Below, piece after piece: positions 1 through 53,545 of a DNA stretch of 64,000 bases. Each line of letters starts with the position of its first letter. Position 1 is the stretch's first letter. The position numbers were made by a program, and so were the translations under genes. The stretch comes from Minisyncoccota bacterium (GTDB taxonomy: Bacteria; Patescibacteriota; Minisyncoccia; JBAYJV01). The stretch covers positions 8,302 through 72,301 of the forward strand of contig JBAYJV010000002.1 in NCBI GenBank assembly GCA_041664925.1, written 5' to 3'. A model generated the notes under the pieces. It did no database searches, was not told the origin of the DNA, and worked only from the letters and a program-made list of their open reading frames with translations.

Positions 1-159
1 CTCATTCACAGCAAAGATGACAAAGTTGTTTCGTTTAAAGATTTTGAAAAATACAAAAAAGATCTGCCCATGGCAGAAACTATGATTTTTGAAGATCGAG
101 GCCATTTTGATCAACCCGAATTTCCTGAAGTTGTTGGGAAAATTAAAGAAATAGTTTAA
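1..159 (+). CDS. C-terminal fragment of an alpha/beta-hydrolase-like protein (5' partial, runs off window start)
   Basis: Frame 1 is open from nt 1 to TAA at 157-159 and translates to ...HSKDDKVVSFKDFEKYKKDLPMAETMIFEDRGHFDQPEFPEVVGKIKEIV*. The tail with conserved H is typical of alpha/beta-hydrolase C-termini. Confidence 0.4.
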   Translation, partial: LIHSKDDKVVSFKDFEKYKKDLPMAETMIFEDRGHFDQPEFPEVVGKIKEIV

Positions 160-161
160 AA

Positions 162-785
162 ATGAACATAAAAATCGCTCTTTCAATTCTCTCATCTGTA
201 ATAGGAATTGTAGCTTTCCTTCCGTACATCTCTGATGTAATTAAAAAAAAGACGCGACCACATATATTTACATGGTTGATTTCTTCTATTACTCAAGGAA
301 CGGCAACTGCCGGCATTTGGTATGGAAAAGGAGGAACAGGGGCGATAGCTTTAACGATTGGAACTTTTTTTGTAATATTAGTATTCTTTTTATCTCTTCG
401 TAATGGGAAAAAAGACATAGCTCGCATAGACATCGCCTTTCTTGCTATTGCTCTTGGTGCTATCTTTATTTGGTGGTTATTGGATTTACCAGTATTATCT
501 ATTTTTTTAGTGACTGGCATTAGAATAATTGGATATGTCCCAACATTCAGAAAGTCATATAAAAATCCTTGGATTGAAACGATTTTTGCTTGGGGAACTT
601 GGGCTATTGGCGATATTTTGATAATTCTTGCCTTAGAACAATATAATTTATTGACTCTAGCATTTGTTTCTATGCTTACTATGGTAAATGGAGGAATGTT
701 CATACTTCTTTTAGTAAGAAGAAAAAAAGTTCCGATTAATCAATCCGAATTTCCTGAAATTGTTGAAAAAATTAAGAAAGTTTAA
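162..785 (+). CDS. Polytopic membrane protein (6-7 predicted TM helices), function unknown. Its last 13 aa are encoded by a diverged duplicate of the upstream gene's 3' end.
   Basis: 207-aa ORF, strongly hydrophobic with TM-like segments. The C-terminus SEFPEIVEKIKKV mirrors the upstream EFPEVVGKIKEIV. Confidence 0.55.
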   Translation: MNIKIALSILSSVIGIVAFLPYISDVIKKKTRPHIFTWLISSITQGTATAGIWYGKGGTGAIALTIGTFFVILVFFLSLRNGKKDIARIDIAFLAIALGAIFIWWLLDLPVLSIFLVTGIRIIGYVPTFRKSYKNPWIETIFAWGTWAIGDILIILALEQYNLLTLAFVSMLTMVNGGMFILLLVRRKKVPINQSEFPEIVEKIKKV

Positions 786-791
786 AATTTT

Positions 792-1535
792 ATGGAGAAG
801 ATTTTAATTTTCATAGTCTTAGCGGCACTAACCTTTGTCAATGTTATTATACCGATTTCTGGCTCTGCGACGACTACACCATTGCTTGCTATAATAACTG
901 ATCCGCACAACGCAATTGGCTTGGCATCTTTTTATTTTGTTTTAAGTGGAATTGTAAGGATATTCGTTTTTAGGAAACATATTCAATGGAAATATATAAA
1001 GAGTTTATTGCCGATATCTGTTCTGGGGGCGATTTTCGGAGCACTATCACTAGTTGAAATAAATACGAATGTACTCTTGATAATTATCTTGCTGTTTCTT
1101 GTGTATTTTGTTTATAAAAAAATACGCGAGATTATCAATAAAAATATAAAAGAAAAGAAAATACACAAATTGACATTCTGGATTGTTGGATTATTTTCTG
1201 GCTTTCTTCAAGGATTTGGGCTTGCCGGCTCTGATTTAAGAAATGGATACTTATATTCAGAAAAGCTGACGATTATTGATGTTCAAGGCACGACTGCTTT
1301 TATTGGTACCGCTAACTTTCTTATAGCAACTATCGTTAGGCTATTTACCAATCAGGTGAGGCTAGTAGATTTATCAATATTGATATATTTGTTACCGTTT
1401 ATAATAATCGCAACTTACATTGGGAAGAAAGTATTATTAAAGATTAATAAAAAATATACTAATTATCTGATATTGGTAATTATGATTTTAATGATTGTTT
1501 TGTTGGTACTTAAGATGTTAGGAATAAAAGTATAA
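792..1535 (+). CDS. TSUP/TauE-SafE family (DUF81) membrane transporter-like protein
   Basis: 247 aa with 7-8 hydrophobic helices and an internal charged loop. Gly-rich helix ends (GAIFGAL, GFGLAGS) are typical of 'probable membrane transporter' TSUP proteins. Confidence 0.55.
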
Positions 1536-1581: not shown

Positions 1582-2418
1582 ATGGCAAAAAATAATAAAA
1601 AACAAATAGCGATTTTTGAAGGCAAGAAAATTAGGCGAATTTGGGATGAAAAAAAAGAACTTTGGTATTTTTCGGTAGTGGATATTGTTGATGCGTTAAA
1701 CGCGAGCAAAAACCCAAGAAATTATTGGAAAGTACTCAAAAACCGCTTAAAACATGAAGGAAGTGAGGTGGTTACAAAATGTAACCAACTGAAAATGCAA
1801 GCCGTTGATGGTAAGTTTTATCTGACCGACTCTGCTGATACAGAAACAATGTTTAGAATTATTCAGTCAATTCCATCACCCAAAGCCGAACCATTTAAGC
1901 TTTGGTTAGCACGAGTTGGTTATGAAAGAATCGAAGAAATAAACGATCCGGAAAGGGCGCTTAATCGCAGTCGAAATTATTGGCAAAGAATGGGACGAAG
2001 TCAAAAATGGATTCAGCAAAGAATGATGGGACAAGAAATCAGAAATAAGCTGACGGATTATTGGAAAGACAACGAAGTTAAGAAACAGGACGAATATGCG
2101 ATTTTAACCAATATTATTCACGAGGAATGGAGTGATTTGTCGGTAAAAGAACATAAAAATTTAAAAAGATTAAAGACAGAAAATTTGCGCGATCATATGA
2201 CAGATGCGGAATTGGTATTTACGGCATTGGCGGAACTTTCTACTCGTCAGATTGCGGAAACCATGGAAACTAGGGGACTGGAAGAGAATAAAATACCAGC
2301 TAAGAAGGGTGGTCGCGTTGCCAAAAATGCGCGCTTGGAATTGGAGCAAAAAACTGGCAAAAAAATAGTTTCAGGAGAAAATTTTAAATTTCCAATTTCA
2401 AGAAAGCGATTACGATAA
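1582..2418 (+). CDS. DinD-like DNA-damage-inducible protein (Bro-N domain family)
   Basis: From [14 protein letters not shown]... The protein resembles E. coli DinD: N-terminal Bro-N-like segment ([37 protein letters not shown]) and C-terminal region (...NIIHEEWS...[20 protein letters not shown]...). The ORF-track start at 1537 overlaps a hairpin, so the internal ATG at 1582 is preferred. Confidence 0.55.
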
Positions 2419-4271: not shown

Positions 4272-4823
4272 ATGACTCTAAAAAACATTATTGAAAAGAG
4301 GAGGAGTGTTAGGAAATTTAAAGCGGATGAGAAAGTTCCGAAAGATTTGATTAATGAATTGATTGATGCTGCTCGGTTGGCACCGTCAGCTTGCAATGCC
4401 CAACCTTCCAGATTTATTTTAATCGAAGACGACAAAACAAAAGAATTACTCAAGGAAAATAACATTTTCAGGCAAGCGTTTGTTTATGAAGCACCGTTAA
4501 TTATTGTTTGTCTTGGCGATGCGAGCGTGTTTCCCAAAGAAAGATTAGAGAAAAATTATGGCAGTTTTGATGAAGAAGTTTTGGGAGATGTGGGGGCAAT
4601 CAGAGATGTGGCTATCGCCACGCAAAATTTGGTTTTAATGGCGACAGAATTGGGATTGGGAACTTGTTATATTGGACTCGTAGATCGAAAGAAAATAAAA
4701 GAAATCTTGGAAATTCCTCAAAACTATGTTTTGCCATTTGTGATTATCACGGGCTATCCGGCCGAAGAACCTAAATCCTCGCCAAGAAAAAGCGTAAAAG
4801 AAGTTATTATTAAAAATTTATGA
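4272..4823 (+). CDS. Nitroreductase-family protein
   Basis: EKRRSVRKF...LIDAARLAPSACNAQP signature of the NADH/flavin nitroreductase fold. Size is 183 aa. Confidence 0.8.
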   Translation: MTLKNIIEKRRSVRKFKADEKVPKDLINELIDAARLAPSACNAQPSRFILIEDDKTKELLKENNIFRQAFVYEAPLIIVCLGDASVFPKERLEKNYGSFDEEVLGDVGAIRDVAIATQNLVLMATELGLGTCYIGLVDRKKIKEILEIPQNYVLPFVIITGYPAEEPKSSPRKSVKEVIIKNL

Positions 4824-5518
4824 AAATATTTATTACCGGCAGTTCCGGTTATATCGGAAGCGAATTAATTAATTATTTAGGCGAGAAGCACGAAATCATT
4901 GAATATGACTTGGCTTTGAGACAAGACATTTTGGATTATGAAAAATTAAAAGAAGCGATGAAAGGTTGCGATATTGTAGTTCATTTGGCTGCTATTCGCG
5001 GACCTGACGAAACCAAAACATTTTCCGATTATTTTAAAGTTAATTGCCAAGGCACTTTTAATGTTGTAAACGCTGCGATTGAAAATAATATAAGAAGAAT
5101 GGTTTATGCCAGCTCAACCGGTTATTATGGACTAGAAAGAGGCGTGCCTTATATAAAGCCGATTAAAGAATCAAATTCTATCATCACTCAACATCTTAAA
5201 GCTGAGGATTTAAATTGCCGAGATTGCGATGTTGCCTATTCAACGAGCAAAGTTATTGCCGAACAAATTCTTGCCAATTATGGGTTAAGAAAGAAAATAG
5301 AAGTGATAATTTTAAGATTAGGTCCGATTGGAGGGAAAAAGGGCGAAAGTTGGGGAATTGATGGAATTAAATTAAAAATGGGGAATGCTTTGCAGGCTCT
5401 TGAAGAAGCGATTACGACCGATAAAAAATTATGGTACGAGGCGTTTACGATTACCGATGAATCAGAAAATGTTGATCTTACTAAAGCTAAAGATATTTTA
5501 GGATACAAGCCAGTTTAA
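4820..5518 (+). CDS. NAD-dependent epimerase/dehydratase (SDR family)
   Basis: MKIFITGSSGYIGSEL Rossmann GxxGxxG start and YxxxK-like active-site region (YSTSK). The ATG overlaps the upstream TGA (ATGA). Confidence 0.75.
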   Translation: MKIFITGSSGYIGSELINYLGEKHEIIEYDLALRQDILDYEKLKEAMKGCDIVVHLAAIRGPDETKTFSDYFKVNCQGTFNVVNAAIENNIRRMVYASSTGYYGLERGVPYIKPIKESNSIITQHLKAEDLNCRDCDVAYSTSKVIAEQILANYGLRKKIEVIILRLGPIGGKKGESWGIDGIKLKMGNALQALEEAITTDKKLWYEAFTITDESENVDLTKAKDILGYKPV

Positions 5519-5715
5519 AAATTTATCGAAGTAAAAATTTATCGAAGTCGGACTTCGATAAATTTGGCTGTTGAGGTCTGACCTCAACACTATAAGAAAA
5601 AGCGTAAAAGAGATTATTATTAAAAATTAATGTGCGGAGGTTCGTTCTTCGCACTTTTTATTTTTATAATATTTTTTTGTGGTAAAATAGAATATTAACT
5701 TGGTAATTTAAAAAT

Positions 5716-6321
5716 ATGTTTTTAACGAATAATAGTTTTTTCCATTTCCTTTTTTTTCTTATAGTTGCAATAGCAATTCTGATTTTGATAGCGCTGAAAT
5801 TATTGGTATTTTTTAAAATATCGAAACGATTTGACAAAACAATTCTTTTTAAAAAGATAGCAATATTTTTCTTTTTATATGAGGCATTATATTTTCTTTT
5901 CGTTTTAATCTATCCAACAGATATAAATTTTATCTTTAATCATTCTTCCGCCACAGTTCTTCTTTCTTCAATACCACTAATCCTTGTGTCATGCTTATTT
6001 TTCTTTTTAATCAATCGCTTTATGAAATTATTCAATCTCAAAAAAGCAATTGCAGTTTTTCTTTTAATGTTTTTTATCGCTACCCCTATTCTTTCTGTGG
6101 TCATTGGAAAAATTGCTACGACAATAAATTTTAAAATAGCAACAGGACATAATTTATCTTTAAGCGATGGGTCGTCTCTTTTTATTTTAGATCCATTGTT
6201 ATACCCTCCTTTCGGATCCTATCAAACTACTGCTCTTATAATTAGAAAAATTGGAGATAGCTTGGGAGAAGGCGCTGTAATTAAGGACATACTAATGGGT
6301 ATTTTTGCTAGTACGGAGTGA
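5716..6321 (+). CDS. Hypothetical integral membrane protein
   Basis: 201 aa, Phe/Leu/Ile-rich with several TM segments. A TTG..TAAAAT-like promoter lies upstream (5672-5700). Confidence 0.45.
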   Translation: MFLTNNSFFHFLFFLIVAIAILILIALKLLVFFKISKRFDKTILFKKIAIFFFLYEALYFLFVLIYPTDINFIFNHSSATVLLSSIPLILVSCLFFFLINRFMKLFNLKKAIAVFLLMFFIATPILSVVIGKIATTINFKIATGHNLSLSDGSSLFILDPLLYPPFGSYQTTALIIRKIGDSLGEGAVIKDILMGIFASTE

Positions 6322-6445
6322 TATCTGAAACAATAGAGGCAGACTTGGGACTTTTTTGTATATTTATACAAAATTTACGGAGGACGGACCTCCGTAAATT
6401 AAAAAAATCTCCCGCAACTTTATGCGGGAGTGATTTTCTATATTT

Positions 6446-7228
6446 CTAAGTACTAGTAAGAGCTTGAGAGAACATTTGAGAAGCTCTAATAACGTAGGTT
6501 TTCGTTGCTTCTATGTCGAGATCATATTCGGCATTGCGAAGGCGTCCCTGAGCATCAATGCTCAACTCAGGGAATTCTTCGACAAGTGGTTGGACAAGAC
6601 CAAGGGAATCAGGTCCTAGTCCGCCAGCGACGCCAAGACCAATATGCCAGTTTTGCCTTTTGATCTCACGAAGGATTTCACGCGCTCGTTCAGTGTCAAA
6701 GGGCTTACCGAGACCGCCACTTGGATCGAGCAAAATATCATTAATGAGATTAGCGTCAATGTAAGGACTAAGCCTTTCTACGATGCCCTGTGGCCCGCCA
6801 GCGGTTTCAATAGCTTTTTGTCCAATCTGCAACACAATTCGTGGAACAAATCCAACGTATTCTCGATACTGTTTCATCATTCGAATATCTGGCCATGCAA
6901 GATTGAGCTGGAAACCACCAAAATTTGATCCGGCAAGTCCTCCAATACCAAGTAAATCAGCGAGAACTGAATCTTCTCGACCTTCTTCGGTGCTGAAATG
7001 AACAAGATTTACTACTCGTTTGTCGGCTAGAAAAATAGGATTCATTACTGGCGGATCTGGCATTTGCTTTGCCCATTGGGGTTTTGTATTAATGCCACGG
7101 ATTGATTTCCATGTAACAAGCACGCCGACCATCAATTTGCGATTACCGTTTTCTGGCAATACGCTCAGCGCAGCCCTCACTTCGCTTGGTTTTGTGATGC
7201 CCGTGATCCCAATGTACGGTTTTCTCAT
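6446..7228 (-). CDS. TIM-barrel-like protein, possibly phosphoribosylanthranilate-isomerase-like; higher-GC cassette gene
   Basis: 260 aa with IGITGI.., LMVGVLV and DPSGGLGKPFD motifs reminiscent of PRAI/TrpF (GGTGxxFDW). Preceded by the conserved leader and SD (7229-7290). Followed by hairpin + T-run terminator (6399-6440). Confidence 0.45.
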   Translation of the reverse strand: MRKPYIGITGITKPSEVRAALSVLPENGNRKLMVGVLVTWKSIRGINTKPQWAKQMPDPPVMNPIFLADKRVVNLVHFSTEEGREDSVLADLLGIGGLAGSNFGGFQLNLAWPDIRMMKQYREYVGFVPRIVLQIGQKAIETAGGPQGIVERLSPYIDANLINDILLDPSGGLGKPFDTERAREILREIKRQNWHIGLGVAGGLGPDSLGLVQPLVEEFPELSIDAQGRLRNAEYDLDIEATKTYVIRASQMFSQALTST

Positions 7229-7393: not shown

Positions 7394-7550
7394 TTTTGTT
7401 GACATTTATGATATTGGATGGTAGGATTTAGAAAGGAAGAAGTCCCGATAGGCCCTGCCTACCGGCAGGCAGGCGGGAGAAGATTGGGCTTTGGGGGGAG
7501 CAGGGTCCGCCTTCGCAATGCCTGCCTATCGGCAGACAGGGCTTCGGCGG

Positions 7551-7859: not shown

Positions 7860-7974
7860 GCCTAGTCAATATATGTTGGAGGTGAGACCTCCAACATATT
7901 TTATTCTATTCTTGACTTTTTTTGGAAAAATAGTAGGATAAGGGAAGGAGGAAGTCCTTCGACTTTGCTCAGGA

Positions 7975-8029
7975 CCTAAGAGCTTTTAAGCTCACAAAAG
8001 TTCGCTAAAAATCTCTAAGGGAGGGCTGT
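7975..8029 (+). promoter_or_regulatory. Conserved leader instance b (serves 8030-8449); near-identical to instance a
   Basis: CCTAAGAGCTTTTAAGCTCACAAAAGTTCGCTAAAAATCTCTAAGGGAGGGCTGT-ATG. Confidence 0.5.
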
Positions 8030-8449
8030 ATGGCGCGAGGAGTGAAGTGGTTCGGATTGACTCAGTTCGACGAAGTCATTGAGAAAAAAGATTTGGGAAA
8101 ACTTAGCATTGTTGCTTTAGCTGAAGGAAGAAAGATATTAGGAAGAAGCATACAAGGTTCTAATGTGTTTGGTATCCCAGTTGATAAGGATAACGTCATA
8201 TTTAGGTACATGAAGGGTGAAAAATTCGATGTTGTTATTCGGTACAGACGAGTTATTCGACAAGTTAGGTTAGTGGCACATGATCGTCTTAGTCTCTTTA
8301 GCGTTAGAAGCATGGCTCTAAAAGCACTTGGCAAGTCTTCTGAAATACTGGTTTTAGTCTTAGAAGATGATCAAGGAAGACGCATTTACATCAATTCTAA
8401 GTTTGCTATGTTATTTAGGCCATTACCTTCCGAAAAGAAAGCGAAATAG
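8030..8449 (+). CDS. Hypothetical protein (139 aa)
   Basis: ORF with the conserved leader CCTAAGAGCTTTTAAGCTCAC...TCTCTAAGGGAGG 6 nt upstream. A stem-loop + T-run terminator follows at 8466-8498. Confidence 0.5.
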   Translation: MARGVKWFGLTQFDEVIEKKDLGKLSIVALAEGRKILGRSIQGSNVFGIPVDKDNVIFRYMKGEKFDVVIRYRRVIRQVRLVAHDRLSLFSVRSMALKALGKSSEILVLVLEDDQGRRIYINSKFAMLFRPLPSEKKAK

Positions 8450-8597
8450 TTTTCAAGCAAATCAAGACTCGGCACAGACGCCGGGTCTTTTTTTTTATTG
8501 TTAATGTAATCCTCCTACGCTCCAACTAGCCGGAGCTTCGGAAGGATGTAAAACTTTCTAAAACTCAATCAATTCGTTAAGAAAGTTTAACAAACAC

Positions 8598-9802: not shown

Positions 9803-10324
9803 ATGCAAAAGAAATTAAACAATTACGCTTTTATTGATAGTCAAAATCTCAATCTTGGCATCAGGAAGTTGAAATGGAGGCTGGATTTTAGGAAGTTTAG
9901 GGTATATTTAAAAGAAAAATATGGCGTAACGAAGGCATATCTTTTTATTGGCTATATGCCAGAGAATAAGGATATGTACAGCTCTCTTAAGGATGACGGG
10001 TATGCGCTGATTTTTAAGCCAATATTAAAAAATAAAGAAGGTGTTGTAAAAGGAAATATTGATGCCGATTTGGTTTTGCAGGCGATGGTTGATTATAAAA
10101 AATATGATAAAGCAGTTATTATAACAAGCGATGGCGATTTTTACTGTTTGGTAAAATATTTATACAATAACAAAAAATTGGAAAGCGTAATAAGTCCGGC
10201 TCGAAGAAATTGCTCGGTGTTGCTCACAAAAGAAGCAAAAGAAAAAATTGCTTTTATGGATAATTTGCAGAAGAAATTGGCGTATGGAAAAACAAAAAGA
10301 CACCGCAGAAGGACGGAACCTTAA
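9803..10324 (+). CDS. NYN-domain (LabA/DUF88-like, PIN-fold) protein
   Basis: AFIDSQNL..., IDADLVLQAMVD, VIITSDGDFYCLV match the NYN/LabA acidic-residue pattern. Confidence 0.6.
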   Translation: MQKKLNNYAFIDSQNLNLGIRKLKWRLDFRKFRVYLKEKYGVTKAYLFIGYMPENKDMYSSLKDDGYALIFKPILKNKEGVVKGNIDADLVLQAMVDYKKYDKAVIITSDGDFYCLVKYLYNNKKLESVISPARRNCSVLLTKEAKEKIAFMDNLQKKLAYGKTKRHRRRTEP

Positions 10325-13285: not shown

Positions 13286-13334
13286 ATTTATTACATAAAA
13301 AAATCCACGCACTTTCTTATGCGTGGGTTTTGTT

Positions 13335-13655
13335 TTATTTTCTTTTAGGAGTTATCACGAGAATGATAAATTTCATAAGGGAAAGGAAAGCAAATCCTCC
13401 TTGGACGATAATCTCTCCTAACAGACTTAATGTCCTGTCAGGATATGGGAACCAGATAGAGACAGCGGGAGATTTATACTGAGTCCACAAGGTAATCGTA
13501 TTGAATCCCAATAGCAGAGTTACGATAATCCAAAAGATTCGTGATTTTTCTAATGGTCTGATGAAAAAAAACACCAAACCAATTCCCAAAAGACCGATTA
13601 TTCCAGCAATAGTGCTCCACATTACAAGAGTATCCCAAGCAACTTGGCTTTCCAT
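13335..13655 (-). CDS. Small integral membrane protein (106 aa, ~4 TM)
   Basis: Hydrophobic ORF downstream (minus sense) of the 75-bp repeat that carries TTGACA-N17-TAGACT. Confidence 0.45.
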   Translation of the reverse strand: MESQVAWDTLVMWSTIAGIIGLLGIGLVFFFIRPLEKSRIFWIIVTLLLGFNTITLWTQYKSPAVSIWFPYPDRTLSLLGEIIVQGGFAFLSLMKFIILVITPKRK

Positions 13656-13671
13656 ATTTTTCTCCTTTATT

Positions 13672-13751
13672 TTGTTTTAAGAACTGATATGAGTCTATCA
13701 TATACACATAATTTGTCAAGAAAATCTTACGAAGTCGGACTTCGTAAGATT
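13672..13751. repeat. 75-80-bp direct repeat copy 1 (promoter module TTGACA-N17-TAGACT on minus strand + CGAAGTCGGACTTCG hairpin)
   Basis: Near-identical to 14193-14272. Each copy precedes a minus-strand gene. Each is also paired with a copy of terminator AAAAAAATCCACGCACTTTCTTATGCGTGGGTTTT (13286-13325 and 13763-13800). Confidence 0.6.
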
Positions 13752-13849
13752 GTTTGTAAGATAAAAAAATCCACGCACTTTCTTATGCGTGGGTTTTTGA
13801 TTTCTTTTATTTCTCTTATTTCTCTTTAGAGGATTGATTCATGTTTCGA

Positions 13850-14179
13850 TTATCGAATTTCCACTAAGTGATGGAAGATTCTACGCACTTTGCCATCTTT
13901 AACTCCAAGTTTTGCAAGACCAGAAAGTATACGCGATTTGTGTTTCATAGACCAAAAACCACGAGTATTTTCGTGAAGATCTCTTTGAAGTAAAAAGGTG
14001 TTTACTGTCAAGATTAGGAAATCACCACTTTGTAAGCGAGCCAATGGACCACGTTCCGCAACTTTCATTTTTAAAGGATCAGATTGAGTAATTTCTGCAA
14101 TGTATAATTCTGTCATGCCCACGATGTTAATAACCACTAAGTCGCCAACTTGCATTGAGCACGGAAAAAAACTTTCCAT
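13850..14179 (-). CDS. Hypothetical protein (109 aa)
   Basis: The internal ATG (MESFFPCSMQVGD...) is preceded by AAGGAGG. The longer track ORF runs through the upstream repeat and promoter. The same 75-bp promoter-bearing repeat as the previous gene lies upstream. Confidence 0.45.
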   Translation of the reverse strand: MESFFPCSMQVGDLVVINIVGMTELYIAEITQSDPLKMKVAERGPLARLQSGDFLILTVNTFLLQRDLHENTRGFWSMKHKSRILSGLAKLGVKDGKVRRIFHHLVEIR

Positions 14180-14192
14180 CCCTTCCTCCTTA

Positions 14193-14272
14193 TATTTTAA
14201 GAACTGATATGAGTCTATCATATACACATAATTTGTCAAGAAAATCTTACGAAGTCCGACTTCGTAAGATTT
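14193..14272. repeat. 75-80-bp direct repeat copy 2
   Basis: TTAAGAACTGATATGAGTCTATCATATACACATAATTTGTCAAGAAAATCTTACGAAGTCCGACTTCGTAAGATT. One substitution relative to copy 1. Confidence 0.6.
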
Positions 14273-14338
14273 TTTAAATAAACAATTGACATTAAAATTA
14301 AGTTTTGTTAGAATATTGTCAGTACCAAAGGAGGCGTT

Positions 14339-29738: not shown

Positions 29739-29796
29739 AATCTTGCTTGCCCGTCCGGAGTCTTGACTGTCGTCAGGCAGGCTTGGCGTAGGAGGG

Positions 29797-29850
29797 TCAT
29801 TCTGAGTATTAGCGAAGAATCTCGGGATCCTTCATTTCATTCAGGATGAC
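29797..29850. mobile_element. 54-bp MITE-like element (TIR GTCATTCTGAG / TTCAGGATGAC)
   Basis: GTCATTCTGAGTATTAGCGAAGAATCTCGGGATCCTTCATTTCATTCAGGATGAC. Confidence 0.4.
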
Positions 29851-30128: not shown

Positions 30129-31028
30129 TCAGGAGCATGTTGCTGCTTCCAGCTGTCCCAGTAAACGGCTGTACTTTGGATGAGCTTCAAGCCACATTCT
30201 AATCTTTTCAAGCGATTCTTTTTCAATCTGACGAGCTCTTTCGCCAGAAATCCCATGCTGTCTGCCTATTTCCTCGAATCCTTGTTCTTCTCTTGAAGGA
30301 TTCATTCCGTAACGCGCCCTTAGGACGGCTGCTTCCCTTTGAGAAAGACCCAAGACCATCGCTTCAGAAATAAGCCTTCTTATAGAACTGTTTCTGATCT
30401 CTTCTCCGACAACTTTTTCTGGAGAAAAAGTTTCATCAATAATACCATTAACTTCAGCGGTCTCATCAGGGTCACTTTTAATGGGCGTGTCTAAAGACAG
30501 CACATCAAAAACTCCAAGAGCGGCGATTAAAGTTTTGGGATTAATCTTATTCTTTCTAGCAAAATCTACTATCGCTATTTCGGTATTACTATTGAGTCTT
30601 GCGTCGGGATGTTCTCTTGCGAATTTGACGATTGACCACTTAATATTTTGAGGCAATCTAATAGGAGAGGATATATCGTGAAGTTTTCTCCCAATCGTAT
30701 CGTCAATCCACCAAACTGCGTAAGTTGATGGTTTGCTGCCTTTTGTTGAGTCGAATTTTGCCGATGAATCGTAAAAAACACGAAGCAAAACTAAATAACA
30801 GTCATGAAGTAAATCAGCAATAGTTTCTTCGTCATTAAAGGTTTGGATCTTTACGAAAATTCTCTTAAGGATTAGCTTGGTCATGCTTAAAACTAAGCGT
30901 GCACAAGCTTCTTTATCGCCATTTCTGGCCTTTTTGGCTAGTTCTAATTGTTCTTCTTTTCTTTGAATTTCTGTGAACAAGCTTTTTTCTGGCATCTGGA
31001 CATGACTCTCAATCGTCGCTAGTGGCAT
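30129..31028 (-). CDS. Sigma-70 family RNA polymerase sigma factor (divergent paralog 1)
   Basis: Region 2 (STYAVWWIDDTIGR) and region 4 HTH (LSQREAAVLRARYGM...EEIGRQHGISGERARQIEKESLEKIR). Confidence 0.75.
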   Translation of the reverse strand: MPLATIESHVQMPEKSLFTEIQRKEEQLELAKKARNGDKEACARLVLSMTKLILKRIFVKIQTFNDEETIADLLHDCYLVLLRVFYDSSAKFDSTKGSKPSTYAVWWIDDTIGRKLHDISSPIRLPQNIKWSIVKFAREHPDARLNSNTEIAIVDFARKNKINPKTLIAALGVFDVLSLDTPIKSDPDETAEVNGIIDETFSPEKVVGEEIRNSSIRRLISEAMVLGLSQREAAVLRARYGMNPSREEQGFEEIGRQHGISGERARQIEKESLEKIRMWLEAHPKYSRLLGQLEAATCS

Positions 31029-31267
31029 TGAACATCCTCCTTTAGAATTTCCTTCTGAATGTAATGAAGAGTAGAAATTCTTAAGCCCTTCCGTAGCTTC
31101 GGCTTGCCCTGCCTACCCTGCCTACCGGCAGGCAGGCGGAGCGTAGAAGGGTAATAATTTTTTAACACTAGACTGTATTTTCATTATTAAAGAACAATAC
31201 TTGCCAACAATACTAACATATTTTTATAAAAAAGCAACCCTCCTACGCACCAGTATAAAAACAATTA

Positions 31268-31960: not shown

Positions 31961-32266
31961 TTGTCGAAGGGTTAGACCCCGGCTTGCCCTGCCTACCGGC
32001 AGGCAGGCGGGACTACACTTGCAACTCTTTCATTATAAAACAAAAAGAAGGAAAGTCAAATGTAAACCTGTTAACCGTTAAGCGTAAACCGTGAACCGCA
32101 AACCTCGCATTTCGCGATTAACGAATAACGACTAATTTTCTTGCCCTTCCGAAGCCCTGCCTACCGGCAGGCAGGCTTGTGCGTAGGAGGGTTGCATTTT
32201 AATCAAAATGTGCTAGTATCGTTGGCAGTTATCATGGTTCTTTAATATTAACAAAGGAGGGGGGGG

Positions 32267-33256
32267 ATGATTGGACAACTAGAAGTTCTCTATGCTTATT
32301 TCAGAGAAATTAGCAGAACTCCTCTTTTAACCAAAGAAGAAGAAATTGAATTGGCTAAAAAAATTGCTCAAGGAGACAAAGAGGCAAAAGAAAAATTTAT
32401 TAGAGCTAATCTGGGATTAGTTGCTTCAATTGTACAAAGATATAGAGTAAGAGATTCTCATTTAAGTTATTTTGACTTGATCCAAGAAGGAACATTGGGC
32501 TTAATTAGGGCGGTTGAAAAATTTAATCCTTGTAAAGAATGTAGATTTGCTAATTATGCCGCTTGGTGGATTAGACAATCGGTCTTGGTGGCAGTAGCAA
32601 AACATAGTAACAATATTAGATTGCCATGGGATGCAAGACGGTTGGTTTCCAAATTTACAAGAGAGAGTTCTGACGTAGGACTTAGTATGACTAACGGCGC
32701 GATGGCAGATTTTTGCAGAAAACACGCTGGAACCAATCGTAAGATACTAATCGCTGCTCTCGGGGCTTATAATAATATTGTGTGCTTGAATTTATCTATT
32801 GGCTGCGATGACAGTGATGCTATTGAAAGACAAAGCCTAAGAGAGATTCCTATTGAAGAGGATGGATTTGGAGATACCAATACCATAAAAATTGTTCTTG
32901 TTTCTCAAGAAGCAATTTCCTTGATGACCATAATTGGCGATGATGGAGATGCTCCCGAAGAGTATGTTTTAGGCGAGCAAAATCCTCAAGAAGATGAGCT
33001 CAGAAAATTGCGCAAAAAAGAAATCTTAGAAAAGGCGATGAATGCTGTTCTTAATTCTAGAGAAATAGATGTTCTCACCTTGCGATTTGGATTGGGAGAC
33101 ATAAAAGAACTAACTCTTCAAGAAGTAGCAGAGCAATATCATCTTTCTCGAGAAAGAATCAGACAGATTGAAAAAAATGCTCTTGAAAAAATTAAATGTT
33201 ATCTCAGAGCAGAATATGGAGAACGTATTCATGAATTAGCAAGATACCTTGTGTAA
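32267..33256 (+). CDS. Sigma-70 family RNA polymerase sigma factor (divergent paralog 2, with ~100-aa insertion between regions 2/3 and 4)
   Basis: Region 1.2/2 (LTKEEEIELAKKIAQGDKEAKEKFIRANLGLV...IQEGTLGLIRAVEKF...YAAWWIRQ) and region 4 (LTLRFGL...TLQEVAEQYHLSRERIRQIEKNALEKIK). Confidence 0.8.
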   Translation: MIGQLEVLYAYFREISRTPLLTKEEEIELAKKIAQGDKEAKEKFIRANLGLVASIVQRYRVRDSHLSYFDLIQEGTLGLIRAVEKFNPCKECRFANYAAWWIRQSVLVAVAKHSNNIRLPWDARRLVSKFTRESSDVGLSMTNGAMADFCRKHAGTNRKILIAALGAYNNIVCLNLSIGCDDSDAIERQSLREIPIEEDGFGDTNTIKIVLVSQEAISLMTIIGDDGDAPEEYVLGEQNPQEDELRKLRKKEILEKAMNAVLNSREIDVLTLRFGLGDIKELTLQEVAEQYHLSRERIRQIEKNALEKIKCYLRAEYGERIHELARYLV

Positions 33257-33465
33257 AATGGTAAGCGGTCACTAAAGAATAGTGACCGCATTTATAATCC
33301 TTGCTTTTTCTTATAAATGTGTTAATATGGGGACCTAGAATAGTTCTTTAACTTAATGTAGTCCTACGGTCACGAATAAAGTCCTCCTTCACTAAAGTTA
33401 CGGCGGGACGTAAGAATCTTCATTTCTCGTAAACTCGAAAGAATCTTCTAACGGAGGTGGGAAAA

Positions 33466-34320
33466 ATGTTTGAATGGCAAAAAGGAATTAGAAGCTATCT
33501 TAAAGAAATTGGCAAAATTCCTCTTTTAACTAGAGAACAAGAATTTGCTTTAGCTGAAAGAGTTGCCAACGGAGACAAAAAGGCAACAGAAGAATTTGCT
33601 CTAGCGAATTTGCGATTAGTCGTTTCAGTCGCAAGAAACATTCATTATTATTCTCCCACGCTCAGCATGCTCGATCTGATTCAAGAAGGCAATATTGGTT
33701 TAATGAAAGCTATCGAGAAATTCGATCGCCATAAAGGCTATAAATTCTCCACATACGCGAAATGGTGGATTTGGCAAGCGATTTTGAGAGCAATATCGGA
33801 TCATGGTAGAGACATAAGACTACCGTCTCATATACTTGAATCAATTCGCAAGGCTCAAAGGAAAATTTCTCAAGAGAAAGATAGAGAAGAGGATCCAAGA
33901 GATTTAGGAGAAATTCTTGAAGAAGACGGATTGAGCGATGCGAGTATTGTTGGGATTATCTCTGCTACTCGCGGAAGACTTTCTTTGGATGTTGAACTTG
34001 GAGAAGACGGAGAAACTTTTGAAGAATATGCTGATGGCAAGCAACCTTCTCAAGAAGATGAATTTAATGCATTGAGAAAAAGAGAAATCATAAAAGAGGC
34101 GATAAATGAGACTCTTGATGATAGAGAGAAGGATATTATTAACTTGCGATTTGGGATGGATGGGACAAAAGCATTAACTCTTAAAGAAATATCAGCTCTG
34201 CATGATATTAGTCGAGAAAGAATTAGGCAAATTCAAATAAAAGCTCTTAGAAAGATCGGACACTATATTGAAACAAAATATAGGGAGCAAATGACGGACA
34301 TAGAAAAAGCGTTTTTATAG
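33466..34320 (+). CDS. Sigma-70 family RNA polymerase sigma factor (divergent paralog 3)
   Basis: LLTREQEFALAERVANGDKKA...ANLRLVVSVAR...IQEGNIGLMKAIEKFD...YAKWWIWQAI and region 4 (INLRFGM...TLKEISALHDISRERIRQIQIKALRKI). ATG is 5 nt after GGAGGTGG. The ORF track used the GTG at 33457. Confidence 0.8.
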   Translation: MFEWQKGIRSYLKEIGKIPLLTREQEFALAERVANGDKKATEEFALANLRLVVSVARNIHYYSPTLSMLDLIQEGNIGLMKAIEKFDRHKGYKFSTYAKWWIWQAILRAISDHGRDIRLPSHILESIRKAQRKISQEKDREEDPRDLGEILEEDGLSDASIVGIISATRGRLSLDVELGEDGETFEEYADGKQPSQEDEFNALRKREIIKEAINETLDDREKDIINLRFGMDGTKALTLKEISALHDISRERIRQIQIKALRKIGHYIETKYREQMTDIEKAFL

Positions 34321-34377
34321 CAGTTGCTAAGGATTGGTTAAAACTTGACAATGGGTAAAATTCTGTTAGTATAGTAA

Positions 34378-34486
34378 ACAGGAGCGCAGAGGTGATTCTC
34401 GGCGTTCTCTTGACTCCATAACGCTCCATTGGGGAGTATCTTGGTGATTCACACGGAAGGGGAAGATGGCTTTCCCTTCCTTTTTG
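34378..34486 (+). ncRNA. Candidate small RNA A
   Basis: TTGACA (34345-34350), 16-nt spacer, TAGTAT. Then ~105 nt ending in GGAAGGGGAAGATGGCTTTCCCTTCC + T5. Shares the GCG(T)TCTCTTGACTC core with sRNA B. Confidence 0.3.
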
Positions 34487-34532
34487 TTATCTGCGTTTCT
34501 GAGTTAAGCGAAGATTACGCAAATAACAATCC

Positions 34533-34650
34533 TGAGCGAAGCTTGCCCTGAACTTAGTTGAAGGGTCGAAGAATTTATCCTGAGCGAAGTTTGCCCTGAA
34601 CTTAGTTGAAGGGTCGAAGAATTTATCCTGAGCGAAGTCGAAGGATCCTC
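34533..34650. repeat. Tandem repeat, ~54-bp unit x 2.2
   Basis: AATCCTGAGCGAAGCTTGCCCTGAACTTAGTTGAAGGGTCGAAGAATTT / ATCCTGAGCGAAGTTTGCCCTGAACTTAGTTGAAGGGTCGAAGAATTT / ATCCTGAGCGAAGTCGAAGG. Confidence 0.6.
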
Positions 34651-34684
34651 TTGACATAAAATAAAATTCTGTTAGTATTATATA

Positions 34685-34792
34685 CGAGAAACAAGAAAAA
34701 TGCTGGGTTGATACCCAGCGCTCTCTTGACTCACGTTCCATAGTGGAACGTTCCAATGGTTCGGAGAGGGAAGATGGCTTCCCTCTCTTTTT
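34685..34792 (+). ncRNA. Candidate small RNA B
   Basis: TTGACA (34651-34656), 16-nt spacer, TAGTAT (34673-34678). Terminator GAGAGGGAAGATGGCTTCCCTCTC + T5 (34764-34792). Confidence 0.3.
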
Positions 34793-34912
34793 ATTGACTC
34801 TGTTTTTGAATGAAATGAAAATTACAGAGTTAACAACCCCGCACCGTATTTACTTGTCCTGAAGCGAATTTATTCTGCTGCAGGATACTGGTGCGGGGTA
34901 TTTATCCTCTTG
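34793..34912 (+). repeat. Composite element copy 2
   Basis: TTATTGACTCTGTTTTTGAATGAAATGAAAATTACAGAGTTAACAACCCCGCACCGTATTTACTTGTCCTGAAGCGAATTTATTCTGCTGCAGGATACTGGTGCGGGGT. Confidence 0.5.
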
Positions 34913-34941
34913 ACATAGAATAAAGTTTTGATAACATAAAT

Positions 34942-35047
34942 ATTGAGGAAGGTAGCTCCTCACTCCCGGTGTCCTGGCGTCCTCCTGGTGGACGTCCTGC
35001 CACCCGCCGTGCGCTGGAGAGGGAAATAGTTTCCCTCTCCTTTTTTT
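34942..35047 (+). ncRNA. Candidate small RNA C (GC-rich)
   Basis: TTGACA (34909-34914) with a weak -10 (TAACAT). GC-rich body ...GGTGTCCTGGCGTCCTCCTGGTGGACGTCCTGCCACCCGCCGTGCGCTGG. Terminator GGAGAGGGAAATAGTTTCCCTCTCC + T8 (35015-35047). Confidence 0.3.
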
Positions 35048-35156
35048 ATTGAGTGCGTTCCTGAATTTATGAAGGAATACGCAATCAATAACCCCGCACC
35101 GTATTTACTTGTCCTGAAGCGAATTTATTCTGCAGCAGGATACTGGTGCGGGGTTT
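35041..35156 (+). repeat. Composite element copy 3
   Basis: TTATTGAGTGCGTTCCTGAATTTATGAAGGAATACGCAATCAATAACCCCGCACCGTATTTACTTGTCCTGAAGCGAATTTATTCTGCAGCAGGATACTGGTGCGGGGT. Confidence 0.5.
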
Positions 35157-38675: not shown

Positions 38676-41600
38676 ATGATTAAAAAACGATACAACAAAA
38701 TATTATTAAGCAGCTTAACGATCTTAATGCTCGTTTTGCAGACTTGTAGTTTTGGAACAACGAATGTTTTGAATACTTTTAAGGTGGAAAAATCTCTTGC
38801 CAATGATATGTGTTCTGTTGACACGGATACGATTTTAATTATGGACAGGTCTGGTAGTATGGCGGATGGAGCAGCTCAAAGCAAATGCGAATGGTGGAGA
38901 ATGGAATGGGTAGTTAATACTTTTCAATGGGTTTTTCATACGGATTACAATGTAACACAAGAATGGTGTAGTGCAAAAAATCTTCCAAATCCAAGAAATT
39001 CAGTATTTTATCCTGCAGTTAAAAGTAAGATTCAGAATGCCAAAGATGCAGCGGATACATTTTTGGATAATTTTAAATCAAATGATCAAAGCGCCTTGGT
39101 GTCTTACGCGACCACTGCAACTCTTGACAAAACTCTTTCAAATAATCATGCCTCCACACTTACGGCCGTCAACGCTTTAACGCCTTCAGGCGCAACAAAT
39201 ATCGGCGATGCCATCAAATTAGGCATCCAGGAATTATCGTCTGTGAGAGCCCGAGCGCAGGCGACAAAAGCGATGGTGCTTTTAACGGATGGCTTGGCAA
39301 ACAAACCCAACGGCGATGGACAAAATGAAAATCCCTTGGATGTCGCTTATGCTGAATCTCAGGCAACAATCGCTGCTGGTCTTGGTTATAAAATCTTTAC
39401 CGTCGGATTGGGTGACGATGGACAAATTGACCAAACAATGTTACAAAATATTGCGACGATTACGGGTGCGACTTATCACCATGTGCCCAATGGCAGTGAT
39501 TTATCGCCAATTTATGATGAAATAGCTTATCAAGTTTGTCAATACGGTTCAATCTCGGGTTGCAAATACGAAGACAAAAATAATAACAGCGCTCTTGACA
39601 ATGGCGAAGAAGGATTGTCTGGCTGGGAAATGGTTTTATCCACCGGCACCTCGACGACTTTATATCAAGACACCGATCAAAACGGTTGTTATCAATTCGC
39701 TGGACTGACCGATGGCAGCTATGCTATCTTCGAAGGTCCTAATTTGGACAAAGGCGACTTCACGCTTACCAGTCCGAGCGTCAACCTCTACGACAATTTA
39801 ATTATTTCAAATCATAACAATATCGCTGATATTGACTTTTTGAATTATTTACCTTCTTGCGGAAACAGCATTACTGATAGTAGCGAACAATGCGATGATG
39901 GTAATTTAATTGATGGCGACGGCTGTTCAGTGACTTGTACGACCGAACAAATTGATTGCGATCAAATCGGTTCAACAGAAATTTCCCGCGAATGCTCTTC
40001 TGACGGCGAAGCTAGCGTTACTTATGCTTGGAATAACGATCAATGCGGTCAAAACTACACTCAAGATGAAACAGATTCTTTGTGCGCTTGTCAAGCGTCA
40101 GATACCGGAGTACAAGGCGAGTGCGTTTCTAATGGCGAGAGACAGCATTACTATACATACAATTACGAATACTGCGGCGCGGATTACGAAGAACCTCAAG
40201 CCGATGCAACTTGCAATTGCGTTGCTTCAGAATCAGGTAGAGAATGTGTCGGCGATAATTCCGCAGAAGTTACCTATTCATACAATTACGATTTTTGTGA
40301 AGCGGATTATACCGAGACTAAAGAAGATTTATCTTGCGGGTCTGAATATCAATGCGGCGATTGGCAAGACGAAGAATGTGTTGATAATGCCTTGAGACAG
40401 CAAACCCGAACTTGCGAGGATCAATATGGAACTTCTTATCCAGAATCGCGATCAGTCAGTGATGATACTTGCGGCTGCCAATCTTCAGAAACAGATCGAA
40501 CTTGCGCAGGCGATGGTTACGCCGATGTCAGCTTCACTTACAATTTTGGATATTGCGGAACGGATTATCAGTCCCAAGAAACTGATAGCTCTTGCGGCTG
40601 TCAGTCATCAGACACTAATCAAGAAGGTGAATGTGTGGGAGATGGCTTGAGGCAACATTATTTTACATACAATTACGGTTACTGCGGCTCAGATTTTGAA
40701 AATCCCCAATCCGATCCGACTTGCGCTTGTGTCGCCTCTGAATTATCAAGAGAATGTAAAAATTCTTCTGAAGCGGACGTAACCTATTCTTATAATTTTG
40801 AATATTGCGGAGCAAATTATACTCAAACCGAAGAAGATTTATCCTGCAATTCGGATTATGAATGTAGCGCTTGGGAAGATGGCGATTGTTCAGGTGATGG
40901 AACAAGAGAACAATCAAGAACTTGCGAAGATCAATACGGAAGCTCTTATCCAGATTCGCGATCAACCAATGATGCTGCTTGCGGATGTGTTGAGACGGAA
41001 GTTTCAGGATCTTGCACGGACACAACTTACAGAGAATTTACTTTCACTTACAATTTTTCATACTGTACTCAAAAACCAGCTGAACAAAGAGATGACTCAA
41101 GCTGTGGCGGTGGAGGCGGCGAGACCTGTGAATATTCTACTTGGCAAGACGGTGAATGTTATGCCGATGGAATGAGACAACAAACGAGAACTCAAACAAA
41201 CACTCTTGACGGTTGCACCGATTTAACACAGAATATTTCAGACACTTCTTGTGATTGTGTTGAGACGGAAGTGCAAGGATCTTGCACAGACACAACTCAC
41301 AGAGAATTTACTTTCACTTATAATTTTTCATATTGCACCCAAAAACCAGCTGAACAAAGAGTTGACTCAAGTTGCGGCGGTGGTGGGGGAGGCGGTGATA
41401 GTCTCGGTTCTATTTCTGGTTGTAAATATTTAGATGCAAATTATAATTATAATATTTTAGACGATACCGTGACACTTTCCGGTTGGGACATATTATTATC
41501 GGGTTCGGCTAGCACAACCACGGCGACTGATGTTAATGGTTGTTATATTTTCAGAGATTTATCGGCAGGAACTTATCAAGTAAAGGAAGGTGTTAATTTT

Positions 41601-46194: not shown

Positions 46195-46383
46195 GTCATC
46201 CTAAGAACATAGTCATCTTGAGGTCGCCTAAGGCGACCGAAGAGTCTCGGGATTCTTCACGGAGTTTATCCTGAGAAACTCGAAGGGTTCAGAATGACAG
46301 ACGCACACGGGATTCTTCGTGGAATTTATAGTGAGCTTGCCTGTGGTGAGCTTATCGAATCCATCGAACTACTCAGAATGACA
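46195..46383. mobile_element. MITE-like elements (one complete at 46195-46298, one truncated to 46383) between LTD-protein and SipW genes
   Basis: GTCATCCTAAG...TTCAGAATGAC, then ...CTCAGAATGACAC. Interiors share GATTCTTCACGGAGTTTATCCTGAGAAACTCGAAGG with the 47571 copy. Confidence 0.4.
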
Positions 46384-47484: not shown

Positions 47485-47648
47485 GTCATCCTGAATATGG
47501 TGAAGGATCCGTGTTTAACAGTTTTTTTCGAGATTCTTCACTTCGTTCAGAATGACACCTTAATTTTATTGTCATCCTGAATGAATGAATGATCCCCGGG
47601 ACTCTTCACGGAGTTTATCCTGAGAAACTTCGAAAGACTCAGAGTGAC
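47485..47648. mobile_element. Two tandem MITE-like elements (47485-47556 and 47571-47648)
   Basis: GTCATCCTGAA...TTCAGAATGAC and GTCATCCTGAATGAATGAATGATCCCCGGGACTCTTCACGGAGTTTATCCTGAGAAACTTCGAAAGACTCAGAGTGAC. Confidence 0.4.
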
Positions 47649-53268: not shown

Positions 53269-53545
53269 ATCCCTCTCCTTTTTTCTTTTTATGAATGCGT
53301 TTGTAAAAGAACTTTAACATCCTAGCATACAAAAATATAATTGTCAATAGCTGATGATAATTTGATGCGATTAACCCTGAAGTACAATAAATTGACTTCA
53401 GGATTATTGACTGCGTAATCTTCGCTGTTAATGTATTATCCTCCTTCGCCAAGGCTTCGGAAGGATTTTAATTTTGTTTCTCTTTATAAATTCAGAGACG
53501 AAATTAAAAAATAGCCAGTATGCTTTTCATACTGGCTAAACGAGA

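Follow-up and report, generated by a model that had tools for sequence, protein, structure and literature searches.

The locus lies on contig JBAYJV010000002.1 of assembly GCA_041664925.1, from a Minisyncoccota bacterium (uncultured Patescibacteria). We analysed positions 8,302 to 72,301 of the forward strand, a stretch of 64,000 nt referred to here as the window. The window begins within a gene for a serine hydrolase, which is followed immediately by a gene for a membrane protein (Table 1), and the order of genes around them is DUF5652, Exo_endo_phos, hydrolase, membrane gene, TauE, Bro-N and LMWPc. An identical hydrolase/membrane-gene locus was present in independent JGI, ENA and Logan assemblies, which shows that the arrangement did not arise through faulty assembly. 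In base composition and GC3, the membrane gene was no different from the neighbouring genes.

Table 1. Positions of the features discussed, numbered from the first nucleotide of the window
Feature	Position	Strand	Remarks
Ser_hydrolase gene (PF06821), 3' end	1-159	+	last 52 codons and stop; window begins within the gene
Repeat copy R1	107-161	+	last 17 hydrolase codons, stop and 2 nt; abuts the ATG of the inserted gene exactly
Membrane protein gene	162-785	+	207 aa; 7-TM PQ-loop/SWEET/KDEL-receptor-like fold (predicted); without own promoter
Membrane gene, native part	162-735	+	ends ...RRKKVP; last few native codons missing
Repeat copy R2	736-787	+	hydrolase-derived; codes the last 16 residues of the membrane protein (INQSEFPEIVEKIKKV) and stop
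TauE/SafE-family membrane protein gene	792-1535	+	downstream neighbour; not in sister locus L004
Bro-N domain gene	1582-2418	+	in the sister genome, between hydrolase and membrane gene
Case 2, copy 1	4784-4822	+	last 36 nt of nitroreductase gene; overlaps the ATG of the following epimerase gene
Case 2, bracketed insert	4820-5593	+	NAD-dependent epimerase gene (4820-5518) and two hairpins
Case 2, copy 2 (5594-5632) and intrinsic terminator	5594-5664	+	non-coding; apparently original TAA kept

The repeat and the two proteins

The membrane gene is bracketed by two copies of a direct repeat, R1 and R2. A gapped alignment of R1 (55 nt) with R2 (52 nt) contained 47 identities, five mismatches and a single 3-nt gap, while a repeat finder reported 40 nt at 88% identity (107-146 vs 736-775) with a spacing of 629. 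The two copies are read in the same frame, end on the same stop codon and both finish in GTTTAAAA. R1 codes for the end of the hydrolase (...GHFDQPEFPEVVGKIKEIV, with the stop at 157-159), and R2 for the last 16 residues of the membrane protein (...VPINQSEFPEIVEKIKKV, then stop). The local alignment scored 64 (z ~20), whereas shuffled queries reached no more than 24-26. A 21-nt core of the repeat, searched with up to three mismatches, occurred in the 64 kb only at the R1 and R2 sites, and two or more matches to the pattern were obtained in 0 of 100 shuffles. A third copy of the hydrolase end was sought after the TauE gene, with nothing significant, and inverted repeats linking the ends of the insert were absent.

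A sequence-only reading of this DNA had proposed that the 3' end of the hydrolase gene recurs downstream as the last 13 codons of the membrane gene, whose ATG lies 2 nt past the hydrolase stop. The recurrence was borne out, with a repeat slightly longer than described, as was the position of the ATG at 162; the duplicate does form the C-terminus of the membrane protein, its contribution being 16 residues rather than 13. The same reading had allowed that the similarity might merely reflect low-complexity, K/E-rich sequence. This was not so, because the longest identical block was CCGAATTTCCTGAA; R1 and R2 share an identical core of 14 nt. It had also suggested looking for the motif elsewhere, and the 21-nt core, as noted above, was confined to two places in the 64 kb.

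The 52 hydrolase codons in the window (LIHSKDDKVVSFKDFEKYKKDLPMAETMIFEDRGHFDQPEFPEVVGKIKEIV, then stop) gave by themselves just a weak match to Abhydrolase_1. On the source contig (L001) the full gene occupies 7862-8464 and encodes 200 aa, and PF06821 was recorded for the full gene in all four loci L001-L004. Relatives of the hydrolase were found in Patescibacteria (Jorgensen-, Wolfe-, Nomura-, Vogel- and Falkowbacteria, among others), and its C-terminus, GHF.Q.EFPE[LI][VI]..IK.., is conserved in ~95 loci from metagenomes and genomes. The catalytic-His motif GHF lies immediately before R1, so that the duplication begins right after it. The hydrolase retains its full C-terminus after the insertion.

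The membrane protein matched no Pfam family at E <= 1 bar a chance match to YfhO. Its 61 homologues all came from uncultured sources, mostly CPR (those named were Falkowbacteria and Gracilibacteria), and none of them had a precomputed Pfam assignment. An AlphaFold2 model built with 26 family members had a pLDDT of 89.7 and seven long helices. When this model was searched with Foldseek, the top 12 PDB matches were all to cystinosin, SWEET proteins (including SWEET13) or KDELR, with TM scores of 0.50-0.59 (0.53-0.59 for the hits to cystinosin, SWEET13 and KDELR) and E values of 0.01-0.8. The protein is thus most likely, on the predicted fold, a PQ-loop/SWEET-type 7-TM protein, a superfamily in which the helices are arranged 3+1+3. 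A short terminal helix was predicted in the tail encoded by R2 (residues 198-206, pLDDT ~73). With a spacer of only 2 nt from the hydrolase stop, the membrane gene is positioned for what would be co-transcription and translational coupling with the hydrolase.

Related loci and the sister lineage

Fifty-nine of the 61 homologues of the membrane protein lacked the tail; across the whole match list they were 174-233 aa long, with ~92% query coverage. In an alignment of 26 family members, all save the window protein and one other (P0001) ended 0-15 residues past an RRxx[VI] motif, with unrelated tails. The peptide is native to the hydrolase in ~95 loci and absent from the membrane-protein homologues, and the tail is therefore captured hydrolase sequence. 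From these comparisons we regard the direction of transfer, from hydrolase to membrane protein, as settled. The proposal that the duplicate had been captured as the C-terminus of the membrane protein was thus upheld, the homologues stopping just past RRxxVP.

A second copy of the last 60 nt of the hydrolase gene, lying up to 4 kb downstream, was detected only in the lineage of the window (z ~20) and in L004/L012 (z ~10). Such a copy was missing from ~85 other hydrolase loci, and the membrane family did not occur in the flanks of nearly all of these loci. In the nearest outgroups (L013, L014 and others), different genes stand next to the hydrolase, and no adjacency to a membrane gene was seen. 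The L014 hydrolase ends in EFPELVEKIKKL and its stop codon, followed by a 125-nt spacer and an unrelated gene. In both L004 and L014, one copy of the repeat closes the hydrolase gene and other sequence comes next, so that these are unoccupied sites. We take the membrane gene to be an insertion, not ancestral synteny, because the neighbours of the hydrolase differ in nearly all relatives. The sequence-only reading had placed an insertion at the hydrolase 3' end and had suggested comparing orthologous loci. On this point it agrees with the comparison, in which the hydrolase of ~90 relatives was without such a neighbour or a second 3'-end copy. In three distant loci from other orders (L095, L105 and L115), a gene of the membrane family, without the tail, lies within 1.5 kb of a Ser_hydrolase gene. 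These loci may reflect a loose, older, operon-like association of the two families.

The second tailed protein, P0001, is 91% identical to that in the window and is encoded on Ga0247841_10002138 (L004), where the order of genes is DUF5652, hydrolase (4452-5051), Bro-N (5093-5929), membrane gene (6001-6624), MazG, GDSL and LMWPc. The genes common to the window and L004 are 82-91% identical at the DNA level. The L004 hydrolase carries one copy of the repeat and then a terminator hairpin, and the membrane gene with its tail lies 0.9 kb away, behind Bro-N. Since the tailed protein is common to the two lineages despite their different gene order, the fusion predates the split between them. The sequence-only reading had regarded a tail native to the membrane family, away from any hydrolase, as telling against capture. 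L004 does hold a tailed protein that is not beside the hydrolase, but the tail is derived from the hydrolase and is not native to the family.

In L004 another direct repeat, R' (5939-5992 and 6613-6666; 54 nt, 94% identity, z = 28), flanks the membrane gene; R' is the sequence that follows Bro-N in that locus (AAAACTGTATAGGACCGTCCCGAAAAGAAATCGGGATAAATyCTCGAwAGAyAA). R and R' were not significantly similar, nor were the stretches beyond Bro-N in the window and in L004, and folding of R' as single-stranded DNA gave no attC-like structure. The L004 membrane protein ends in ISQPEFPELVEKIK, then TV and the stop codon; the hydrolase-derived part stops after KIK, where R' begins. Upstream of its ATG, the sequence ...CAATTTTAAAA matches the last codon, stop and following 2 nt of the window hydrolase, with TTTTAAAA corresponding to the last codon and stop. 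The sequence TTTAAAAATG occurs just once on this strand in the 64 kb; it is therefore not a generic start context, and the L004 unit descends from an arrangement in which the gene was adjacent to the hydrolase. In this unit, the last 9-16 nt of R precede the gene and its first 42 nt follow it. Its make-up is suggestive of a circular permutation, as if a circle of the gene and one repeat had been opened at one point. Both L004 breakpoints lie in an A-run, which might also be a microhomology hot spot. L004 also contains a truncated second copy of the 5' end of Bro-N (9828-10079), and from its sequence the region is clearly prone to rearrangement.

Comparison of the hydrolase genes of the two lineages for a mosaic or recombination tract revealed no clear breakpoint at the repeat, identity varying from 68% to 100% along the gene. 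R1 is the more derived of the two copies in the window, with one extra codon and V/G substitutions. In length and sequence, R2 (EFPEIVEKIKKV and stop, then AATT) is nearer to the hydrolase ends of L004 and L014 than is R1 (EFPEVVGKIKEIV and stop). Between the window and L004, non-synonymous changes affected 4 of 16 codons in the tail and 14 of 191 in the core of the membrane protein (Fisher p = 0.04), which is consistent with the tail being a tolerated but weakly constrained appendage.

Search for integration machinery and similar arrangements

Flanking direct repeats built from the 3' end of the target gene, as expected of an att-type element, are present at this locus. Pfam domains of integrases, recombinases, resolvases and transposases were absent from the unit, from the 40 larger ORFs of the window and from the 8 kb upstream (72 kb in all), and neither intI nor attI was found in the window or those 8 kb. 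Rfam searches of the whole window at gathering thresholds, and scans for tRNA and tmRNA, returned nothing. Single-stranded folding of R1 and R2, on both strands, gave energies of -2.3 to -4.4 kcal/mol (z -0.04 to +1.2 relative to shuffles). The same gene and tail are bracketed by R in the window and by the unrelated R' in L004, so that one att sequence has not been reused. The ends of the insert bear no inverted repeats, the duplication is 52-55 nt long, and the 72 kb contain no transposase domain. A transposon, IS element or MITE would be expected to show terminal inverted repeats, a target duplication of short, fixed length and a transposase. Searches for the membrane family among viral contigs gave no matches.

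When the 3' ends of all ORFs in the window were scanned, only two cases emerged, both within 0-6 kb; a third match (~40.2-40.7 kb) was rejected as an internal protein repeat. In the second case, the last 36 nt of a nitroreductase gene, together with the next ATG, recur beyond an epimerase gene (39 nt, 92% identity). The right-hand copy has a plain TAA stop, followed by an intrinsic terminator (5632-5654) and a T-run, and looks from its sequence like the original end of the nitroreductase gene. The nitroreductase and epimerase genes are also adjacent in L004, where the right-hand copy is gone.

The scan of ORF 3' ends was extended to 680 kb of related loci. On an unrelated CPR contig (L026), a small GIY-YIG gene is followed by two unrelated single genes in succession, and behind each of these stands another copy of the last 51-54 nt of the GIY-YIG gene, the third copy being derived from the second. 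In L107, a relative of L026, the GIY-YIG gene is followed directly by a terminator and the next gene, i.e., the site is empty. The window itself contains no GIY-YIG gene. Look-alikes in L020 (a pair of tandem paralogues) and in L054, L021 and L022 (multi-copy intergenic or terminator elements) were rejected. Single genes bracketed by short direct repeats were in general common in the fetched CPR loci, most of them being intergenic promoter or terminator elements or tandem paralogues. A search of the literature for such a pattern in CPR/Patescibacteria found no description.

Possible origin of the insertion

The evidence shows the repeat, its origin in the hydrolase, the chimeric ORF, a fusion older than the lineage split, unoccupied sites, and neither a recombinase in 72 kb nor a folded structure; how the joining took place at the molecular level, and in which order the later rearrangements followed, we infer. 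In our reading, with a probability of about 0.55, the locus is no active system but the scar of an old single-gene insertion, in which homology- or microhomology-driven joining duplicated the 3' end of the target. Before two closely related lineages diverged, a copy of a PQ-loop-like gene, promoterless and with its last few codons missing, would have been joined exactly at the stop codon of the Ser_hydrolase gene, and the same joining event would have duplicated the last ~55 bp of the hydrolase. The left copy, R1, would have left the hydrolase complete, and the membrane gene, with its ATG 2 nt behind the hydrolase stop, could have been read off the hydrolase transcript. The right copy, R2, by chance in frame, would have given the membrane protein 16 residues and a stop. 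Candidate routes are a replicative template switch with re-entry 55 nt behind the point of departure (the FoSTeS/MMBIR model) and 'ends-in' or single-crossover recombination of incoming or looped-out DNA. Later, in the sister lineage, the unit (the gene and about one repeat of hydrolase sequence) would have been relocated behind Bro-N, creating the new 54-nt flanking duplication. Template switching that gives duplication-flanked insertions is an established model (PMC2621351).

A single event is favoured over duplication followed by deletion because, in both cases in the window, the match of the right-hand copy stops exactly at the junction with the inserted start codon. The duplications vary in length (39, 52-55, 54 and ~170 nt) and in sequence, and are therefore more readily explained by homology or microhomology than by a staggered cut of fixed length or an enzyme that recognises one sequence. 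Some points tell against our reading. Given that R2 is closer than R1 to the hydrolase ends of L004 and L014, an origin of R1 in another lineage, together with the insert, fits better than simple duplication in situ. The same detail would favour DNA that arrived with its own hydrolase end; the four copies are too short for a tree. A donor locus bearing the native 3' end of the membrane gene was not found, and after ~12% divergence the microhomology at the junctions is not readable with certainty. Two clean start-codon junctions out of two are tidier than random illegitimate recombination, and selection for expression must be invoked to explain them.

Other readings of the same evidence appear less probable. 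The sequence-only reading had pictured regeneration of an att site by site-specific integration, for which a small circle would have carried the membrane gene and an attP mimicking the 3' end of the hydrolase gene, with a tyrosine or serine recombinase acting in trans and with R1 and R2 as attL and attR. Direct repeats of 39-55 nt from the 3' end of a target gene are typical of att sites, and islands that target the 3' ends of protein genes are known (SGI1 at trmE, PMC8409611). The 14-nt identical core, the single-copy empty sites in L004 and L014, the resemblance of R1 to a foreign allele and the repeated gene-end fragments in L026, which begin at the same position every time, would also suit integration of this kind. 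However, a recombinase is absent from the unit, from the 64-kb window and from the 8 kb upstream, and the unit is one 574-bp ORF fragment from a family not seen on viral contigs. Moreover, the L004 unit is flanked by an unrelated repeat, and that of case 2 is yet another sequence. Because there is no recombinase in the 72 kb, no fold and no viral occurrence, and because two unrelated repeats flank the unit in two genomes, the att/integrase route was not supported and we consider it improbable. Convergence on a functional peptide, e.g., a common C-terminal signal, without common descent, might be entertained since both copies are translated, K/E-rich and predicted or expected to be helical. It is, however, effectively refuted by identity at the DNA level, which extends to third positions, the stop codon and bases beyond. 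In addition, none of the 100 shuffles reproduced the repeat, the tail occurs in no other member of the family, and it evolves faster than the core.

Two further schemes invoke recombination in other ways. If the hydrolase and membrane genes were old neighbours, a 629-bp tandem duplication, extending from the last 55 bp of the hydrolase gene almost to the end of the membrane gene, could have placed the duplicated hydrolase end at the tail of the first membrane copy, and the second, intact copy would have been lost later. Tandem duplications are the commonest spontaneous rearrangement, and one would account for the native-looking junction TAAAAATG and for the exact period of 629 nt; the loose co-location of the families in L095, L105 and L115 and the rearrangements in L004, with its truncated second Bro-N copy, point the same way. 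This scheme is nevertheless unlikely, in that it needs two events, with a deletion starting exactly at the second ATG, a coincidence repeated in case 2, where the copy on the right comes with a stop and a terminator of its own, like an original gene end. In addition, L013, L014 and other nearest outgroups lack the adjacency that it presupposes. Unlikely too, in our view, is an integrase-free cassette, in which the gene and one repeat would loop out as a circle and re-enter by homologous ('Campbell' or ends-in) recombination at short matches, e.g., after DNA uptake, the repeats being the homology used and not a target-site duplication. The L004 unit does look like a circular permutation of that in the window, its pieces meeting at the same A-rich point of R, and the L004 hydrolase is left with a single R, as after excision; variable repeat lengths suit homology over a fixed staggered cut, and copies that differ by 6-15% resemble donor and recipient alleles. 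On the other hand, re-entry at R' needs a circle carrying R', and nothing shows that. The likeness to R upstream of the L004 gene is short (9-16 nt) and AT-rich, the A-run that holds both breakpoints could simply be a hot spot of microhomology, and only two contexts of the unit occur among 5.8 billion proteins plus contig collections.

Elements that integrate in the 3' end of a protein-coding gene and supply a replacement end include e14 and phage 21 in icd. The closest known things to the present locus are islands that regenerate the 3' end of their target and integron cassettes; a recombinase (in 72 kb), repeated use of one att site and an attC that folds were each looked for, and none was found. 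As with islands and prophages that target 3' ends (SGI1 at trmE, PMC8409611), the insert is flanked by repeats of the target end, the target is intact and the copies are similar, not identical. Unlike them, the present locus has no integrase in 72 kb, and it carries a single ORF of 574 bp, promoterless and truncated at its 3' end; the right copy now serves this cargo as coding sequence, and in the sister genome the same cargo lies between another repeat pair. Integron cassettes (an ORF and attC, inserted at attI by IntI) likewise consist of a single promoterless ORF, with its start codon at the 5' boundary, that runs into the 3' repeat, with genes all in one orientation and possibly a circular intermediate, whereas here the repeat copies the coding end of a neighbour, lacks the imperfect palindrome of an attC and does not fold, and no intI or attI was found. 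Transposon target-site duplications are also direct repeats of the target that flank an insert, but they measure 2-15 nt, compared with 39-55 nt here, where there are neither terminal inverted repeats nor, in the 72 kb, a transposase. FoSTeS/MMBIR and homology-facilitated illegitimate recombination share with our locus a templated insertion, a duplication behind the point of departure, short A-rich junctions and variable length. Those models come mainly from eukaryotes (PMC2621351) or from transformation experiments, whereas here the process is deduced from an old, diverged scar.

Taken as a single scar, the locus is an ordinary product of illegitimate recombination. It is also a base-by-base record of how a gene was added to a streamlined CPR genome while the gene at the landing site stayed intact, and of how a protein gained a new C-terminus out of the coding sequence of its neighbour. 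These episymbiotic bacteria have few classic mobile elements. If the pattern (single inserted genes bracketed by a gene-end duplication, without a recombinase) were general, it would offer them a simple route for gene gain and operon extension, and would provide a sequence signature with which to find recent insertions in metagenome-assembled genomes. Case 2 and the L026/L107 pattern give hints of recurrent, integrase-free addition of single genes. It is conceivable, if speculative, that Patescibacteria add and shuffle single promoterless genes by a cassette-like route that needs no integrase. New genes would be attached where a resident gene ends, with 40-55 nt (sometimes more) of that 3' end duplicated, after which the gene and one repeat could loop out and re-enter elsewhere, possibly coupled to DNA uptake. 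Candidate events for such a route number five, in three lineages: the two in the window, the R' pair of L004 and the two serial insertions of L026.

Duplicated gene ends in the window and in related genomes

The arrangement seen in case 1, where a PQ-loop-like membrane gene behind a Ser_hydrolase gene is bracketed by copies of the hydrolase 3' end, was observed again in the window, with a nitroreductase gene as the source (coordinates of this and the other features are collected in the table below). The two copies, of 39 nt and 92% identical, correspond to the last 36 nt of the nitroreductase gene plus an ATG. The right-hand copy, which sits 3' of an epimerase gene and keeps the original stop plus a terminator, is missing in the sister genome L004. 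In the latter, the tailed membrane gene is flanked by a 54-nt repeat of a sequence found downstream of Bro-N, and a second Bro-N 5' end, truncated (83 codons), lies immediately upstream of the nitroreductase gene.

Of about 95 loci, 10 carry small GIY-YIG genes (about 85 aa) at distances of up to 4 kb from Ser_hydrolase (L095, L077, L032, L107, L026/L070/L086, L099, L047 and L071); there was none in the window. On the CPR contig L026, and also in L070 and L086, the 3' coding end of such a gene is repeated, with one copy after each of two consecutive single genes. The relative L107 has the unoccupied arrangement.

Members of the membrane family also occurred within 1.5 kb of Ser_hydrolase in three distant CPR genomes, with differing gene orders and with membrane proteins lacking the hydrolase-derived chimeric tail. 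Genes for nitroreductase, GDSL lipase and Bro-N also turn up repeatedly around the hydrolase in various genomes.

Coordinates of gene-end copies, neighbourhoods, paralogues and repeats
Feature	Sequence	Positions	Strand
Nitroreductase 3' end and duplicate	window	4784-4822, 5594-5632	
Repeat flanking tailed membrane gene	L004	5939-5992, 6613-6666	
Truncated Bro-N 5' end	L004	9828-10079	
GIY-YIG 3' coding end	L026	6591-6641, 7545-7608, 8154-8207	
Unoccupied arrangement	L107	2846-3400	
Membrane family + Ser_hydrolase	L095	4001-5448	
Membrane family + Ser_hydrolase	L105	4001-5801	
Membrane family + Ser_hydrolase	L115	3501-6116	
Duplicated expression frame (putative)	window	13287-14275	
Small neighbouring genes	window	13335-13655, 13850-14179	minus
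Shared upstream block	window	13648-13755, 14172-14275	
GC-rich palindromic elements	window	7444-7476, 7511-7543, 31107-31139, 31978-32010, 32146-32178, 29743-29797	
Sigma-70 paralogue	window	30129-31028	minus
Sigma-70 paralogues	window	32267-33256, 33457-34320	plus
ORF-poor stretch with repeat units	window	34344-35154	
VWA/SdrD-B/DUF4215 protein	window	38676-42881	
Direct repeats, first family	window	46248-46302, 47597-47652	
Direct repeats, second family	window	47937-47981, 48130-48174, 50768-50812, 53378-53422, 53440-53484	

A shared frame around two unrelated genes

Two small neighbouring genes, unrelated to each other (BLASTP E = 0.03), share an upstream block (108 aligned columns, 89%; core of 86 nt at 95%) that includes a hairpin and a TTGACA promoter-like site, as well as a terminator block (60 nt, 83-88% depending on method). 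It looks as if one expression frame was duplicated and the gene inside it exchanged.

Repeats and paralogues in the window

Three sigma-70 family paralogues lie inside 4 kb, the two plus-strand copies having a common 132-nt block with 77% identity (32297-32428 versus 33496-33627). An ORF-poor stretch, with zero ORFs of at least 110 aa between 34320 and 36111, contains repeat units of about 255-308 nt, each with a promoter-like site (CTTGACA...TAGTATA) as well as a hairpin (GGGAAG...CTTCCC), and a 48-nt tandem duplication (34529-34624). An Rfam scan gave no match here; the units possibly form a small-RNA gene array.

The GC-rich palindromic elements (CCCTGCCTACCGGCAGGCAGGC), a family dispersed at intergenic sites in surroundings of 38% GC, are REP-like. 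Two more direct-repeat families, of 45-56 nt, lie between minus-strand surface-protein genes (PKD, LTD, camelysin-like). The strongest repeat families of the window are accounted for by Cys-rich internal repeats (123-270 nt) of the VWA/SdrD-B/DUF4215 surface protein (1401 aa).
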